The position numbers and the translations under genes are program-made. From Bacteroidota bacterium (GTDB lineage Bacteria > Bacteroidota > Ignavibacteria > Kryptoniales > JAKASW01), in assembly GCA_021811615.1 (NCBI GenBank), contig JAJZNW010000087.1:2263-66262 (forward strand): a stretch of DNA of 64,000 nucleotides, in the 5' to 3' direction. The first letter of the stretch is position 1. Each line of letters begins with the position of its first letter. Below the pieces are notes generated by a model that saw nothing but the letters and a program-made list of their open reading frames with translations, had not been told where the DNA came from and did not search any database. This document shows positions 29,615 to 34,841 of the stretch, one piece after another.

Positions 29615-32600
29615 ATGATAAGAAGGATCGCGACAACTATAGTGATGCTTTATTCCCTGAACGCTTTCGCGGGGAATCGAGTGCTGATTGTTTACGAAGG
29701 CAAGGATGCGCAGAGCAACCCGGCAAAAGGCGATGCGCTGCAACTGTACCAGCTCCTCGGCCATTTCGACCTGAGCAAAAAGGTCGTCGCTGCTGACGAT
29801 TACCGTCCGGGGGAATGCAACGGGTTCGATTATGTCTTTTTCAACGGGTTCAGTCCGAACTGCCAGCCGCCGGATAAGTTTCTCGATGACGCGTTCCAGT
29901 ATAAGGGAACACTCGTCTGGTTGAATACAGGCATCATCGCGTTCAACGCGCGCCACAATCTGGAAAAGAAATATGGATTTGTTCCCGACAGGTATGACTC
30001 CACTCTCGGGTTCGACGCGGTAGTCCCGACGGACAAGGACTTCAGGTTCGACAAGGGCGACAACTATCTGACCATGATCACGATTACGAACAGTACGATG
30101 GTCAAGGTCCTTGCTAACGCTTATGCGCCTCATCATGTCGTTTCGCCCTACGCTATCCATTCCGGCAACCTCTATCTCTTCGGCGACTCGCCTTTTTCAT
30201 ACATAGGCCCGACCGACAGGTACATCTTTTTTGCGGAGAAACTCCACGACATCCTTCACCAGGAGCATCCCGAATTCCATTCAGCAATGATCCGTATCGA
30301 GGATGTGGATCCAACCGAAGACCCGAACAGCATCAGGAAGATTACCGACCTTTTGTACAGTGAGCATGTTCCTTTCCTGATAGCCGTCGTCCCCTTTTAT
30401 GTCGACCCGGCGAACAACGTTCGCATTTCGCTTTCCGACAAGCCGGATATGGTCGATGCCCTTCGTTATGCGGAAGAGCATGGCGCTACGATAGTCATGC
30501 ACGGCGTCACTCACCAGTATCACGGAGTTACCGACAACGATTACGAGTTCTGGGACAGTGCGCTTAACAGGCCGATAGCAAACGACAACGCCGCTTATGT
30601 CAAGCAGAAGCTCGAGACCGGAGTTGAAGAGCTGATGCGTAACGGTGTTTACCCGCTTGCATGGGAGACGCCTCACTATGGCGCTTCCGACATCGACTAC
30701 GCCGCGATCTCGAAGGTATTCTCGACCGCAGTCGAAGAACGGACCGTTATGAACGATCTCGATTACAGCCAGTATTTTCCTTATGTCATTCAGAAAGATA
30801 TGTTCGGCGAAAGGATCGTTCCTGAAAATACAGGTTACGTCCCTTACGGTTCGCCCCAGGAAGAGGAGAAGGGAGTTCAGGATATCCTCGCCGCGGCGAA
30901 GGCGAATCTGTACGTGAGAGACGGTTATGCCACAGCTTTCTTCCATCCATTCATGCCGATTCACCTTCTCAGGGAGATTGTCGAGGGAACCAAGGCGCTC
31001 GGCTACACGTACGTCAGCTTGCGCGACAGCAGCAACATCGTAAGACTTCCCGACAGGGTGATCATGTCAGGCGCCGACTCGTTCAAGATTTCGATCGAAG
31101 ACGAGTATCTCAAACAGATCTATTTGAATGATAAAGGGGAGCGGGCTCAGAGAGAAATTACTTCGAAGAGGGTTACCGAAACATTCAGGAAGCAAGTCGC
31201 ACTTAAGCCCGGATGGATTTATGCGGCAGAGCCAATCGAGTACAGGGAAAAGGAGCTGACCTTCTGGGATAACGTAATGATAGGAATAAAGGGGGTATGG
31301 AACAGCATTTTCCCGGAAAAGAAAAAGATAACTCCTGCTGTCGGGTGTATTCTCTGGGATTCGACCGCGACGGGCGGAGCGAAGCTGGACGAAGCGAGTT
31401 TTGCGTCAGCTCTAAGGAGCGTTGGCATACCCACCGATACTCTTGCTCCCGGCAGCCTCGAAAGTCTGAATCCATACAACTTAATAATAGTCCCGTACAC
31501 CGTCGCGGATAACCTGCCCGACTCTCTCTATGAAGTGCTTGAGAAGTTTGTCTCATCCGGCGGAAGGCTTATCACCGATTCGAAGAACCCGCTCGCGGTC
31601 GACTTCGGTGTGAAGTTCAGCAAGAACGTCATGCGGCTCGAGAAGGTGAGAGACCGCATGTTCCCTGAACAGCTCCTTAGCTGGGGGAATTTCGAAACGG
31701 TCCATCGGATCGATGTCGAAGAGAATGATCGTATAATCTGCACGAACGACCTTAACGATGCGCCGGTGGTCGTCGCGAGAAGGTACGGCAAGGGGAAAAT
31801 TATCGTGATGAGTGCCCGATTCGATCCGGTCACAGGCGGAGGCTATGCGAGGTTCCCGTACCTGATAGAGTGGATCAAGAACTATTTCCAGCTTTATCCG
31901 ACATTGAGACGAGATAATCTGGATATGTTCTTCGATCCTGGACTCAGGTCCACGTCGCACATAAGCATCGAGTCGCTGGTGAAAGACTGGGCGGCGAAAG
32001 GTATCAGGGTTATCCAGGTCGCCGGGTGGCACGAATACCCGAAATATACATACGATTACGACAGGCTGATCAGGCTGTGCCACGCTTATGGGATCGCTGT
32101 GTACGCATGGATCGAACCGCCGCAGATAAGCAAGATGTTCTACGATGAGCATCCGCAATGGCACGAGAAGAACTACAAAGGAGAGGATGTCCGTCCCGAC
32201 TGGCGCTACCCGGTGGCGCTTACCGACAGCGCGTGCCTGCGAGCAGCTTCCGGCTGGACTTACAATTTCCTCACTTCGCACGATTGGGACGGGGTGAACA
32301 TATCGGAACTCTATTTCGGCGGCGAAGGTGCACCGGCAGATCCGAGAATGCTTACGCCGTTCGACATGAGCGCGCGCACCATGTTCAGGAGGGAATACGG
32401 GTTCGATCCCGTCCAGCTCTTCCAGCAGAATTCTCCGCATTACTACAAGACTTCGCCACAGGACTGGCAGAGCTTCGTCGACTTCCGCGCTTCGCTGGTA
32501 ACGAGCCTGACTTCACATTTCATTGATATAGCCCGGGACGCTTTCAGCGGCAAGCCGGGTGCGCAGATAATACTGACCGCGATGGATCAGAAGACATTTC

Positions 32601-33544
32601 CCGGGCTCAGGTCTTCGCTTGGGGTAGATATGAACCAGATACTTCAGCTCAGGAACACATACCCGTTTATCCTCAATGTCGAGGACCCTGCCGTAAGCTG
32701 GAACTCCGATCCAAGGCGATATCTGGCGATCGGGAACACTTACAAGAAGTTGTTGGGCCCCGATTCATCTGATTTGATGATCGACCTGAACATACTTGAA
32801 TTCCGTCATTCCAACTACAACGGTGTGTTTCCAACGAAGATGCCCACAGGGATCGAAAGTTATCTGCTCGTGAATTCGGCATCACAGGTCGCGCCACGAG
32901 TGGCGATCTACTGCGAAGCGACCGCTCTCCCGCAGGATATTGCCGATTTCCCGTATGCGGCAACCCCGCAGGCAAATTTCCAGGCTTCCGACGGTGGCTT
33001 CACAGTAAACGCCCCATATTCGACCTGCATGAGGCTCAGCAATGACGTAGCTGAAGTATCGGTGGATGGCAGGGTTGTATATCCATATCAGCCTGGCTGC
33101 TTCTCGATCCCGGCGGGAAATCACTTCGTGCGGATTGTGAAGGCCGATGTCAACCCGTTTGAGAGCGGATTGATGCATTCGCATATAGAGTCTGCTTCAT
33201 GCAACATCCTCAGTGAGAGAACGTTCCAACGCGGAGTGGAATTCACCTACTCTTCGTTGGGAAGATGTGCGGTATCGTTTGGTAAATTGCCTTACGCGGT
33301 TCTCGTGGACGATCACGAAATTCCATTCACCGTAGCACGGGAGGAACAACACTACGGCATCGTTCTCCCATCCGGCAGGCACAAGGTCCTTGTCGTGCTG
33401 GAAAGCACTGTTTCCTACGGGATCGACATGACGAGTTTATGGTCCTCCGCTCTCATAGCGATATTCGGATCGATCGCTGGAGGAATCCTAATACTTCTTT
33501 ATTTTGTGTTGAAGTTCAGAAGACGGACGGTTGCGCATGTATGA
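29615..33544 (+). CDS. 1309-aa multidomain exopolysaccharide-modifying protein: DUF2334 (PgaB-like deacetylase fold) + amidotransferase-like middle + GHL10-like TIM barrel + C-terminal TM anchor
   Basis: Signal peptide. DUF2334-like block IRIEDVDPTEDPNSI...VPFLIAVVPFY...IVMHGVTHQY...EFWD...WETPHYGAS. Middle block GGRLITDS...GKGKIIVMSARFD. TIM-like block GIRVIQVAGWHEY...GIAVYAWIEPPQIS...HPQWHEKN...DWDGVNISELYF. The final segment LWSSALIAIFGSIAGGILILLYFVLKF is a TM helix. Confidence 0.75.
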   Translation: MIRRIATTIVMLYSLNAFAGNRVLIVYEGKDAQSNPAKGDALQLYQLLGHFDLSKKVVAADDYRPGECNGFDYVFFNGFSPNCQPPDKFLDDAFQYKGTLVWLNTGIIAFNARHNLEKKYGFVPDRYDSTLGFDAVVPTDKDFRFDKGDNYLTMITITNSTMVKVLANAYAPHHVVSPYAIHSGNLYLFGDSPFSYIGPTDRYIFFAEKLHDILHQEHPEFHSAMIRIEDVDPTEDPNSIRKITDLLYSEHVPFLIAVVPFYVDPANNVRISLSDKPDMVDALRYAEEHGATIVMHGVTHQYHGVTDNDYEFWDSALNRPIANDNAAYVKQKLETGVEELMRNGVYPLAWETPHYGASDIDYAAISKVFSTAVEERTVMNDLDYSQYFPYVIQKDMFGERIVPENTGYVPYGSPQEEEKGVQDILAAAKANLYVRDGYATAFFHPFMPIHLLREIVEGTKALGYTYVSLRDSSNIVRLPDRVIMSGADSFKISIEDEYLKQIYLNDKGERAQREITSKRVTETFRKQVALKPGWIYAAEPIEYREKELTFWDNVMIGIKGVWNSIFPEKKKITPAVGCILWDSTATGGAKLDEASFASALRSVGIPTDTLAPGSLESLNPYNLIIVPYTVADNLPDSLYEVLEKFVSSGGRLITDSKNPLAVDFGVKFSKNVMRLEKVRDRMFPEQLLSWGNFETVHRIDVEENDRIICTNDLNDAPVVVARRYGKGKIIVMSARFDPVTGGGYARFPYLIEWIKNYFQLYPTLRRDNLDMFFDPGLRSTSHISIESLVKDWAAKGIRVIQVAGWHEYPKYTYDYDRLIRLCHAYGIAVYAWIEPPQISKMFYDEHPQWHEKNYKGEDVRPDWRYPVALTDSACLRAASGWTYNFLTSHDWDGVNISELYFGGEGAPADPRMLTPFDMSARTMFRREYGFDPVQLFQQNSPHYYKTSPQDWQSFVDFRASLVTSLTSHFIDIARDAFSGKPGAQIILTAMDQKTFPGLRSSLGVDMNQILQLRNTYPFILNVEDPAVSWNSDPRRYLAIGNTYKKLLGPDSSDLMIDLNILEFRHSNYNGVFPTKMPTGIESYLLVNSASQVAPRVAIYCEATALPQDIADFPYAATPQANFQASDGGFTVNAPYSTCMRLSNDVAEVSVDGRVVYPYQPGCFSIPAGNHFVRIVKADVNPFESGLMHSHIESASCNILSERTFQRGVEFTYSSLGRCAVSFGKLPYAVLVDDHEIPFTVAREEQHYGIVLPSGRHKVLVVLESTVSYGIDMTSLWSSALIAIFGSIAGGILILLYFVLKFRRRTVAHV

Positions 33545-34841
33545 TTTCTTCACGACACTTCTGGGTGGGCTGTTTGTTCTTTCAGTAATATTCATCTGGT
33601 TCATGATCGCGTACCAGCTTGTTTTGACCATAGCGGGATTTTTCCACAATTGGTCTTCCGCAAAGGAAAAACGCGTCATCGACAGCATGACTCACTTCGA
33701 AAGCCCGCGAGTTTGCATCCTCATTCCCGCTCACAATGAAGAAACGGTTATTCAAAGGACCCTGGATGCCATGATAAAACTCGAATATCCCGCCGACAGG
33801 CTCGAGATACTCGTCATCAACGACGGCTCGTCTGACAGGACTGGAGAGATAGTCGAGGCAATGTCTAAGCGCGACCGCAGGGTCCGTTGTTACAACGTGC
33901 CGAAAGGCGAGGGAGGTAAGGGGAAGTCCCGCGCACTGAACCTCGGACTAAAGCAAACCGATGCAGAAGTGATAGCGGTTTACGACGCCGACAACCAGCC
34001 GCTCCCCGATGCGTTGAAATACCTGGTGGCGGAACTTCTCCTTCACCCGGATCTGGGGGCAGTCCTCGGCAACTTCAGAACTATCAACAAGGACCGGACA
34101 TGGCTCACTCGTTTCGTCAGCATCGAGACCATGAGTTTCCAGGCAATACTTCAGGCAGGGAGATGGGCGATGTTCAAGGTGGCGACGCTCCCGGGAACCA
34201 ACTTTGTGATATGGAAGCATCTCGTTGACGATCTCAACGGCTGGGACGAAGACGCCATAACCGAAGACTCGGAACTGAGCATCAGGGTCTACATGAAAGG
34301 GTACAAGATAAAATACATACCATTCGCGGTAACACTTGAGCAGGAACCGGAAACACTTCCGGTGTGGGCAAAGCAGAGAACCCGGTGGGTGCGTGGGAAC
34401 AATTATGTGGTTACGAAGTTCTTGAAGGAAATAACGCAATTCCAGAACAAGTTCCTTGCCTTCGAGGTCCTTTATCTCCTTTCACTGTACTATGTCTTTC
34501 TCTTTGCAATTGGTGTCAGTGACCTCATATTTATCTTGAGCGTAACGCATCTCGTCGCTATTCCACTGCCGGGTCCGTACACCACTGTCTGGGTACTCGC
34601 CATCGTCCTTTTCATCCTGGAGATAATCCTGGTCTTGTCGTATGAGGGAATGGATACGCCGAGGAATTTCTTCCTTGTGTTCCTGATGTATTTCACCTAC
34701 TGCCAGTTCTGGATATACGTAGTCGGCAGGGCAATTTATCTTGATTACATAAAAAGGGAGAAGCGCACGTGGGCGAAGACGGTGCGCTTTCAACTCGAGG
34801 ATTCCACGAAAGACCAGGGAGCAGCAGGCGATAAGAAGTAG
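33537..34841 (+). CDS. processive family-2 glycosyltransferase (PgaC/cellulose-synthase-like polysaccharide synthase)
   Basis: ILIPAHNEE, VINDGSSDRT, VYDADNQP (DxD), ITEDSELS (TED), QRTRWVRGN (QxxRW). There is one N-terminal TM helix and several C-terminal ones. ATG 33537 overlaps the upstream gene by 8 nt. Confidence 0.88.
   Translation: MYDFFTTLLGGLFVLSVIFIWFMIAYQLVLTIAGFFHNWSSAKEKRVIDSMTHFESPRVCILIPAHNEETVIQRTLDAMIKLEYPADRLEILVINDGSSDRTGEIVEAMSKRDRRVRCYNVPKGEGGKGKSRALNLGLKQTDAEVIAVYDADNQPLPDALKYLVAELLLHPDLGAVLGNFRTINKDRTWLTRFVSIETMSFQAILQAGRWAMFKVATLPGTNFVIWKHLVDDLNGWDEDAITEDSELSIRVYMKGYKIKYIPFAVTLEQEPETLPVWAKQRTRWVRGNNYVVTKFLKEITQFQNKFLAFEVLYLLSLYYVFLFAIGVSDLIFILSVTHLVAIPLPGPYTTVWVLAIVLFILEIILVLSYEGMDTPRNFFLVFLMYFTYCQFWIYVVGRAIYLDYIKREKRTWAKTVRFQLEDSTKDQGAAGDKK

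Follow-up and report, generated by a model that had tools for sequence, protein, structure and literature searches.

The stretch of DNA analysed here (the window) comprises 64,000 nucleotides of contig JAJZNW010000087.1 from a Bacteroidota bacterium of the order Kryptoniales (class Ignavibacteria) and carries, on its forward strand, a pair of overlapping genes that encode an exported multidomain protein of 1309 residues and a membrane glycosyltransferase of family GT2. A first-pass annotation made from the sequence alone had described the pair as a two-gene exopolysaccharide (EPS) system, and both open reading frames (ORFs) are as described there. The pair is a genuine, conserved feature and constitutes a fused and minimal diderm form of an EPS system that is already known though little understood. 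It probably represents a minimal two-gene cassette for synthase-dependent EPS production of the YdaL/YdaM lineage, in which the synthase is accompanied by a partner that de-acetylates and trims the polymer. EPS systems of the Yda/Pss type have, to our knowledge, been described in Firmicutes only, and we know of no biochemical test of what YdaL, a DUF2334 protein, does. The window and its relatives indicate that the same synthase/DUF2334 core is spread through uncultured diderm lineages, the predicted modifying functions being fused, in the window variant, into one well-modelled polypeptide.

Assignment of the pair to the YdaL/YdaM lineage

The GT2 gene, listed as an ORF from TTG 33531, was read instead from ATG 33537; with this start, the overlap of 8 nt with the end of the large gene (33537-33544, ...GCGCATGTATGA..., including the stop codon of the large gene) is obtained as originally reported, and suggests coupled translation of the two proteins. 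Numbered from the same ATG, the motif set of processive synthases was found at the expected places (DGSSD at 96, DADN at 150, TED at 242 and QRTRW at 280), and the flanking transmembrane (TM) helices mentioned in the first-pass annotation are recognizable in a hydropathy scan as hydrophobic segments at 1-37 and, three in number, between 305 and 397. The protein would accordingly be an inner-membrane GT2 with D, DxD, TED and QRTRW motifs and about 2 + 3 TM helices. It matches the usual Pfam GT2 families, and its alignment with processive synthases extends over the QxxRW motif and the TM helices. Among solved structures, BcsA cellulose synthases are its closest relatives, matching it in the catalytic domain as well as in the TM helices, and weaker similarity was seen to NodC and chitin synthases.

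The closest link to a named system is provided by Paenibacillus vulneris, in which a locus (L063) with the Pfam order GH8-GGDEF-DUF2334-GT2-BcsB reproduces the ydaJKLMN layout. The window GT2 shares 45% identity over the full length with the YdaM-like GT2 of this locus (E 2e-124), and the N-terminal half of the large protein aligns with the P. vulneris YdaL over residues 21-526 (E 1e-35). Furthermore, YdaL-like proteins used as seeds in a genome scan led to 80 Bacillota loci, 51 of which have, directly downstream of YdaL, a GT2 scoring 340-390 bits against that of the window. Because of these three observations, the window pair is, as judged from sequence, to be classed as YdaL/YdaM rather than PgaB/PgaC. 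The BcsB-like YdaN was present in only 11 of the 80 loci and is not universal in the family, so that YdaL and YdaM may be considered as its conserved core. As a separate observation, most of the 23 loci (of 80) without any GT2 match come from the Bacillus cereus group, the chromosomes of which (L015-L034 and similar) carry a YdaL-like DUF2334 gene without an adjoining YdaM-type GT2; this fits the published absence of a yda-like operon from that group (PMC5422440).

The two core families thus occur in the window in the same order as in the ydaJKLMN operon of Bacillus subtilis (compared via the Paenibacillus locus), YdaL-type DUF2334 first and YdaM-type GT2 second, and export and a C-terminal TM anchor are common to the YdaL-type proteins of both systems, Bacillota YdaL and YdaN proteins also ending in such an anchor. 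The window protein differs in having an extra module of about 735 residues, composed of a glutamine-amidotransferase-like (GATase-like) domain, a TIM barrel and β-sandwiches, ahead of the anchor, and its host is a diderm. Neither a BcsB-like subunit (YdaN/PssD) nor, among the ORFs scanned, a degenerate-GGDEF receptor (YdaK/PssE) belongs to the window operon. In B. subtilis, ydaLMN are needed for an EPS of unknown structure controlled by cyclic di-GMP (c-di-GMP) and YdaK (PMC5422440, PMC7064775, PMC13274460), and this EPS binds an α-Gal/GalNAc lectin (PMC13274460). The Listeria monocytogenes pssA-E/PssZ system is, by its published description, likewise synthase-dependent, with an IcaA-like GT2 (PssC), a deacetylase (PssB), a BcsB-like PssD and the dedicated hydrolase PssZ (PMC4125290, PMC13492145, PMC6307706). 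Pss deacetylase is the function listed for PssB, and cell-associated EPS disappears when PssB is lost (PMC6307706). The Listeria system is gated by c-di-GMP via PssE and operates in a monoderm, whereas no such receptor was seen in the window.

The first-pass annotation had compared the pair with the machinery for poly-N-acetylglucosamine (PNAG), lacking PgaA and PgaD. The combination of a processive GT2 with a deacetylase/hydrolase-like fusion protein is supported, and neither PgaA nor PgaD adjoins the pair; the pair is, however, not an independent PNAG analogue, belonging instead to the named YdaL/YdaM lineage. The resemblance to PgaABCD/IcaADBC remains considerable in that a processive membrane GT2 is joined by one periplasmic protein uniting a metal-dependent deacetylase fold with a glycoside-hydrolase-like TIM barrel, and the best fold matches of the large protein include PgaB (4f9d, 4p7o). 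It could accordingly be proposed that the GT2 makes poly-β-1,6-N-acetylglucosamine (GlcNAc) like PgaC/IcaA and that the large protein is a functional PgaB analogue, i.e. a deacetylase with a GH153-like hydrolase. The best curated model for the GT2 is indeed PgaC/IcaA (NCBIfam TIGR03937), its hydrophobic segments are laid out much like the TM helices of PgaC/IcaA-type synthases, and the top fold matches include E. coli PgaB and its C-terminal domain for the C-terminal half and CE4 enzymes for the N-terminal half. The score of 173.9 bits lies, however, far under the equivalog cut-off of 422.3 bits and contrasts with the 340-390 bits of the YdaM-type GT2s; the large protein has DUF2334 in place of the canonical CE4 domain (PF01522), its barrel lacks a GHL13/GH153 sequence match, and the PgaA porin and PgaD are missing beside the pair. 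Moreover, relatives have the epimerase WecB adjoining or fused to the large protein, and a GlcNAc polymer would not need WecB. A PNAG-type system is consequently considered unlikely. PgaB is, besides, a lipoprotein, whereas the large protein has a C-terminal TM helix as its anchor.

Architecture of the 1309-residue protein

The domains of the large protein and the evidence for each are listed in Table 1. The N-terminal YdaL-type module covers about 570 residues, and its AlphaFold model is confident, with a predicted local distance difference test (pLDDT) of 92.1 and a predicted template modelling score (pTM) of 0.85. The DUF2334 block with a PgaB-like deacetylase fold, postulated from motifs (IRIEDVDP at 226, VMHGVTHQY at 294 and WETPHY at 350), is supported both by Pfam (PF10096, E 8e-50) and by fold matches to the CE4 enzymes SpPgdA, PdaC, Bc1960 and acetylxylan esterase (target TM-score 0.58-0.69); no sequence match to PF01522 was returned by Pfam for the large protein, and PF10096 is present also in the B. 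subtilis control genome. Alignment of 51 YdaL-type sequences revealed Arg227, Glu229, Asp230, His296, His300, Glu351, Pro353, His354 and Tyr355 as invariant and His444 as nearly invariant, and these residues presumably correspond to the Asp/His/His metal triad, the base and the acid of CE4 enzymes. The domain ahead of DUF2334 is GATase-like by fold, matching PabA and the glutaminase domain of CTP synthase (target TM-score 0.47-0.63); it was overlooked in the first-pass annotation, which had recognized a GATase-like region in the middle of the protein only, and the latter assignment holds at the level of fold. The segment 548-566, behind the β-sandwich that closes the module, is too weakly hydrophobic for a TM helix (mean Kyte-Doolittle value 0.77).

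The added C-terminal module was modelled with similar confidence (pLDDT 92.7, pTM 0.91), so that the structure prediction suggested at the outset succeeded for both halves (mean pLDDT 92-93). In its GATase-like domain, Pfam Glyco_hydro_42M is matched below threshold at 596-654 in the window protein and above threshold in homologues, and GH42 β-galactosidases match the combination of this domain with the barrel by fold. The best fold matches of the TIM barrel itself (target TM-score in brackets) are the PgaB C-terminal domain 4p7o (0.69), the GH153 domain of BpsB 6au1 (0.64) and Cwp19 of C. difficile 5oq3 (0.60). The barrel had been announced as GHL10-like from the motifs YAWIEPPQIS and DWDGVNISELYF, which are present at 830 and 890; this is supported at the fold level, as seen from the PgaB C-terminal domain and Cwp19, but not at the sequence level, where Pfam gave no GHL10 and no GHL13 match and only a sub-threshold match to GHL6 at 808-858. 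Acidic residues Asp892, Glu898, Glu1023, Asp1024, Asp1057 and Glu1081 are invariant among 49 sequences, and the model places them at strand ends of the barrel or close to these. The hydropathy scan detected an N-terminal signal-like segment and one strong TM segment, in agreement with the signal peptide and C-terminal anchor assigned previously. NCBIfam has no family for the large protein, and a sequence search of solved structures gave nothing meaningful. Taken together with the neighbourhood data below, deacetylase- and hydrolase-like folds are present, the GT2 aligns with processive synthases and the two genes co-occur, so the core of the original proposal stands.

Table 1. Positions of the genes and protein domains of the cassette in the window, and of candidate barrel genes in the loci of relatives
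Feature	Position	Strand	Evidence
Large-protein gene; multidomain protein of 1309 aa, exported and anchored at its C-terminus (YdaL-type module + added GH-like module)	29615..33544	+	ORF list, translation, 617 full-length homologues, AlphaFold models
Signal peptide, aa 1-19, MIRRIATTIVMLYSLNAFA/G	29615..29671	+	Read from sequence; N-terminal helix in model; relative with cytoplasmic epimerase putatively fused ahead
N-terminal class-I GATase-like (flavodoxin-like) domain, aa ~21-200	29675..30214	+	Fold matches, alignment with YdaL proteins
DUF2334 domain, CE4-like deacetylase fold, aa 224-458	30284..30988	+	Pfam PF10096, fold matches, invariant columns
β-Sandwich domain closing the YdaL-like module, aa ~474-545; helical linker 550-565 after it	31034..31249	+	Model secondary structure
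GATase-like domain 2, similar to the 'trimerisation' domain of GH42, aa ~575-765	31337..31909	+	Sub-threshold Pfam Glyco_hydro_42M, fold matches
(β/α)8 TIM barrel, glycoside-hydrolase-like, aa ~769-1119	31919..32971	+	Model pLDDT >90, fold matches, invariant columns
Two β-sandwich domains, aa ~1121-1261	32975..33397	+	Model secondary structure
C-terminal TM anchor, aa 1274-1302, then basic tail KFRRRTVAHV	33434..33520	+	Hydropathy 2.52; long helix in model
YdaM-family processive GT2 synthase gene, 434 aa from ATG 33537	33537..34841	+	Pfam GT2 families, sequence identity to Paenibacillus YdaM-like GT2
Candidate barrel genes in relatives	L134:13129-14376, L124:13177-14637, L128:10430-11692		Co-oriented with the pair

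The topology of the large protein, exported, multidomain and with a C-terminal TM anchor, is that of the BcsB-like YdaN, and it could be argued that the protein acts chiefly as a periplasmic scaffold or conduit without catalytic function, standing in for BcsB/YdaN, in which carbohydrate-binding and flavodoxin-like domains guide the chain while DUF2334 and the TIM barrel bind it. The two flavodoxin/GATase-like domains and the several β-sandwiches would suit such a function, as would the fact that BcsB was not found in the window genome (84% complete). Furthermore, the CE4 pseudoenzyme BA3943 is also among the fold matches of the N-terminal half, and the C-terminal domain of PgaB was originally described as a binding module. 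Comparison by hhalign, however, found no homology of the C-terminal half to YdaN beyond the terminal TM helix (probability 2.7%), and BcsB is not among its top fold matches. The full CE4-like set of presumed metal and acid/base residues and several acidic residues of the barrel are, moreover, invariant in distant homologues, which exceeds what binding would need. A purely structural role is therefore rather improbable. A fusion of YdaL with YdaN, suggested by the lengths (1309 ≈ 569 + 703 residues), was also considered and rejected, as YdaN-type proteins are BcsB-like (PF03170) and the C-terminal half gives no BcsB match. The added module, for which phmmer found no match in the 80 Bacillota loci, appears not to be homologous to YdaN/BcsB.

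Away from any GT2, paralogues consisting of the C-terminal module by itself (GATase-like domain, TIM barrel and β-sandwiches; about 650-770 residues) were observed (L004:6071-11509 and L117-L119), one of them between a tetratricopeptide repeat (TPR) protein and a PMT_2 glycosyltransferase. Since such versions occur in other gene contexts, the C-terminal half may be considered as a mobile module; a tblastn search of plasmids with it gave no match. Standalone proteins resembling the C-terminal half (P0174 and P0181) or YdaL (P0206) were evaluated as evidence for a split operon and rejected, none of them adjoining a GT2.

Conservation, gene neighbours and the predicted polymer

Full-length homologues of about 1300 residues number 617 at 90% clustering and come mostly from metagenome-assembled genomes (MAGs) labelled Ignavibacteria or Bacteroidota, the JGI name being 'YdaL'. 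Among 301 sampled genomes of the phylum, the full-length protein was found in 18, all in the window's own class and distributed over 13 of 143 genera. The conservation of the neighbourhood, which the first-pass annotation had recommended to check, is clear: in 15 of 17 related loci the large gene is directly followed by a GT2 with 58-84% identity to that of the window. Of the two remaining loci, one is an extra copy, the pair being present elsewhere in its genome, and the other lies on an 11.4-kb contig.

Two kinds of neighbours in relatives, both overlooked previously, bear on the polymer and on its export route. The first is WecB, the epimerase forming UDP-N-acetylmannosamine (UDP-ManNAc), an equivalog of which is encoded directly upstream in 6 of the 17 relatives (TIGR00236, 478-495 bits at a cut-off of 210). 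A metagenomic protein of 1708 residues (P0101, L120:8001-13127) even has a WecB-type epimerase in frame at its N-terminus in a putative fusion; its position ahead of the former signal peptide is topologically sensible. The window genome has two Epimerase_2 genes, both away from the locus. The second is a protein of 415-486 residues encoded directly after the GT2 in several relatives and without a Pfam or NCBIfam match; it has a signal peptide and a GKGKGG-like loop that is invariant, and ends in ...GxGF. This family is a candidate outer-membrane export barrel, and its gene overlaps or abuts the GT2 gene in at least two loci.

DUF2334 is associated with processive synthases elsewhere as well. 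In Actinomycetota, single chains of 778-940 residues (P0262, P0263 and P0274) combine an N-terminal DUF2334 with a C-terminal processive-type GT2, and are Rosetta-stone fusions linking both functions. On the Ralstonia solanacearum megaplasmid CP022795.1 (L011:3153-11447), an nfrB-like gene (GT2 + MshEN) is followed by an nfrA-like gene (TPR/NfrA_C), wecB, a small ORF, a YdaL-like DUF2334 gene and an ORF of 295 residues, an operon that combines Nfr and Yda parts; a YdaL-like DUF2334 gene was matched on 136 Ralstonia megaplasmid records, from one of which the operon was read. On a Streptomyces plasmid, a wecB-GT2 pair is divergent from a DUF2334 gene. The GT2s that accompany DUF2334 in Ralstonia and on plasmids of B. 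tropicus and Streptomyces were rejected as orthologues of the window GT2, being 26-27% identical or barely similar to it. As these partners are only distantly related to the window GT2, DUF2334 pairs with several GT2 subfamilies, and it appears to be a recurrent accessory of such synthases, often linked to WecB. A similar linkage is known for E. coli NfrB-NfrA-YbcH with WecB (the N4 glycan receptor), where, as in relatives of the window pair, a processive GT2 is genomically linked to WecB; NfrB has been proposed, partly from this gene linkage, to use WecB-made UDP-ManNAc (PMC8669469). The Ralstonia nfrB-nfrA-wecB-x-DUF2334 operon has the YdaL-like protein within it. The window GT2 is, however, barely similar to the Ralstonia NfrB-like protein (BLASTP E 0.005), and no MshEN, NfrA_C domain or NfrA-type TPR/barrel partner was found in the two proteins or the flanking ORFs scanned.

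With the pair assigned to the YdaL/YdaM lineage, the following mechanism may be envisaged. The inner-membrane YdaM-family GT2 would polymerise a UDP-N-acetylhexosamine and push the chain into the periplasm. Its donor would most likely be UDP-ManNAc, giving a β-linked ManNAc-type backbone as in the Listeria Pss EPS, a lead based on WecB upstream of or fused to the large protein in relatives, on the WecB-DUF2334 links in Ralstonia and Streptomyces, and on the Pss and NfrB precedents. The Pss EPS is a β-1,4-ManNAc chain with α-1,6-Gal (PMC13492145), a backbone that fits the WecB linkage. The large protein, exported via its signal peptide, would be held beside the synthase by its C-terminal TM helix; its DUF2334 domain, with the CE4 fold and the conserved Asp-His-His set presumed to be the metal triad, probably de-N-acetylates part of the nascent chain, and its barrel, folded like the PgaB C-terminal domain/GH153 and Cwp19, probably binds or cleaves the polymer. 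A single polypeptide would thereby take over what in Firmicute systems is done by YdaL and a YdaJ/PssZ-type hydrolase as separate proteins and, possibly, by the BcsB-like scaffold. The product is most likely an N-acetylmannosamine-type polymer, partly de-acetylated.

Several points weigh against this interpretation. We know of no DUF2334 protein that has been assayed so far, and the roles proposed for the barrel residues as catalytic are read from their conservation and strand positions. The Paenibacillus operon served as a stand-in for the B. subtilis and Listeria proteins in the sequence comparisons. PgaC/IcaA being the best curated hidden Markov model for the GT2, a GlcNAc polymer would also be compatible with its sequence. 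The published repeat unit of the Pss EPS is given in PMC13492145 with ManNAc only, and deacetylation by YdaL-type proteins may for this reason be minor or absent. WecB, the outer-membrane barrel, a BcsB-like protein and a c-di-GMP receptor were all not found adjoining the pair in the window. The barrel family was found neither in the window genome (84% complete) nor in another genome from this genus that is 100% complete, and BcsB (PF03170), which the B. subtilis control genome has, was found neither in the large protein nor anywhere in the window genome; passage of the polymer across the outer membrane is left unexplained by these absences.

The missing export component could also be taken to mean that no EPS is secreted at all and that the pair builds or remodels an envelope glycan that does not leave the periplasm or the inner membrane, or else a short NodC-like oligosaccharide, in keeping with the weaker similarity of the GT2 to NodC and chitin synthases. 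This is highly improbable in view of the relatives with the same pair, in which the candidate barrel gene is co-oriented with it and in at least two loci overlaps or abuts the GT2 gene, and in view of the orthologous Firmicute systems, which yield cell-associated EPS (PMC13274460, PMC4125290). [quoted passage not shown] If so, the polymer would either cross the outer membrane by a route unlike that of any known synthase-dependent system or stay as a periplasmic or cell-wall-bound glycan.

For the YdaL/YdaM cassette as favoured here, the fusions and neighbours (WecB, the DUF2334-GT2 chains and the barrel without a Pfam family) yield predictions for the donor sugar, the role of DUF2334 and a new export porin. 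The two-gene version is a convenient minimal system for reconstitution in laboratory hosts and a compact test bed for both DUF2334 function and the export question.

Host genome and flanking genes

The pair is flanked upstream by phoH, at a distance of 247 nt, and downstream by a convergent Fur/DUF3501/CCG/rubrerythrin cluster; these flanks being unrelated, it may be considered as an isolated two-gene unit. In accordance with the first-pass annotation, neither a c-di-GMP receptor nor an export porin was found among the flanking ORFs scanned: PilZ, GGDEF and MshEN domains are absent from both proteins and from these ORFs, no genome-wide receptor search having been made, and no porin gene adjoins the pair. 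A scan for sigma-70 promoters and terminators, in which promoter matches were rarer than in shuffled sequences, was uninformative for this lineage. The host genome encodes 134 sorting domains of the type IX secretion system (T9SS), which identifies it as a diderm of the Fibrobacteres-Chlorobi-Bacteroidetes (FCB) type; the host is a T9SS-rich diderm of the Bacteroidota/Ignavibacteria type. A MAG of the same genus (G113, with protein P0021) is labelled 'Candidatus Acidoferrales bacterium' (Acidobacteriota) at NCBI, whereas relatives of the same class are labelled Bacteroidota or Ignavibacteria; given these labels and the T9SS content of the window genome, the Acidoferrales label looks wrong.

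Two further genes recur near the pair in relatives. A Ycf48/BNR β-propeller protein with a T9SS C-terminal sorting domain is encoded downstream of the barrel gene (L124:16844-18931 and L134:14377-16470) and may be a secreted enzyme acting on the same polymer. At least two relatives have, a short distance downstream of the GT2, a gene of the GH38 α-mannosidase family (L126:13873-17001 and L127:13753-16878).

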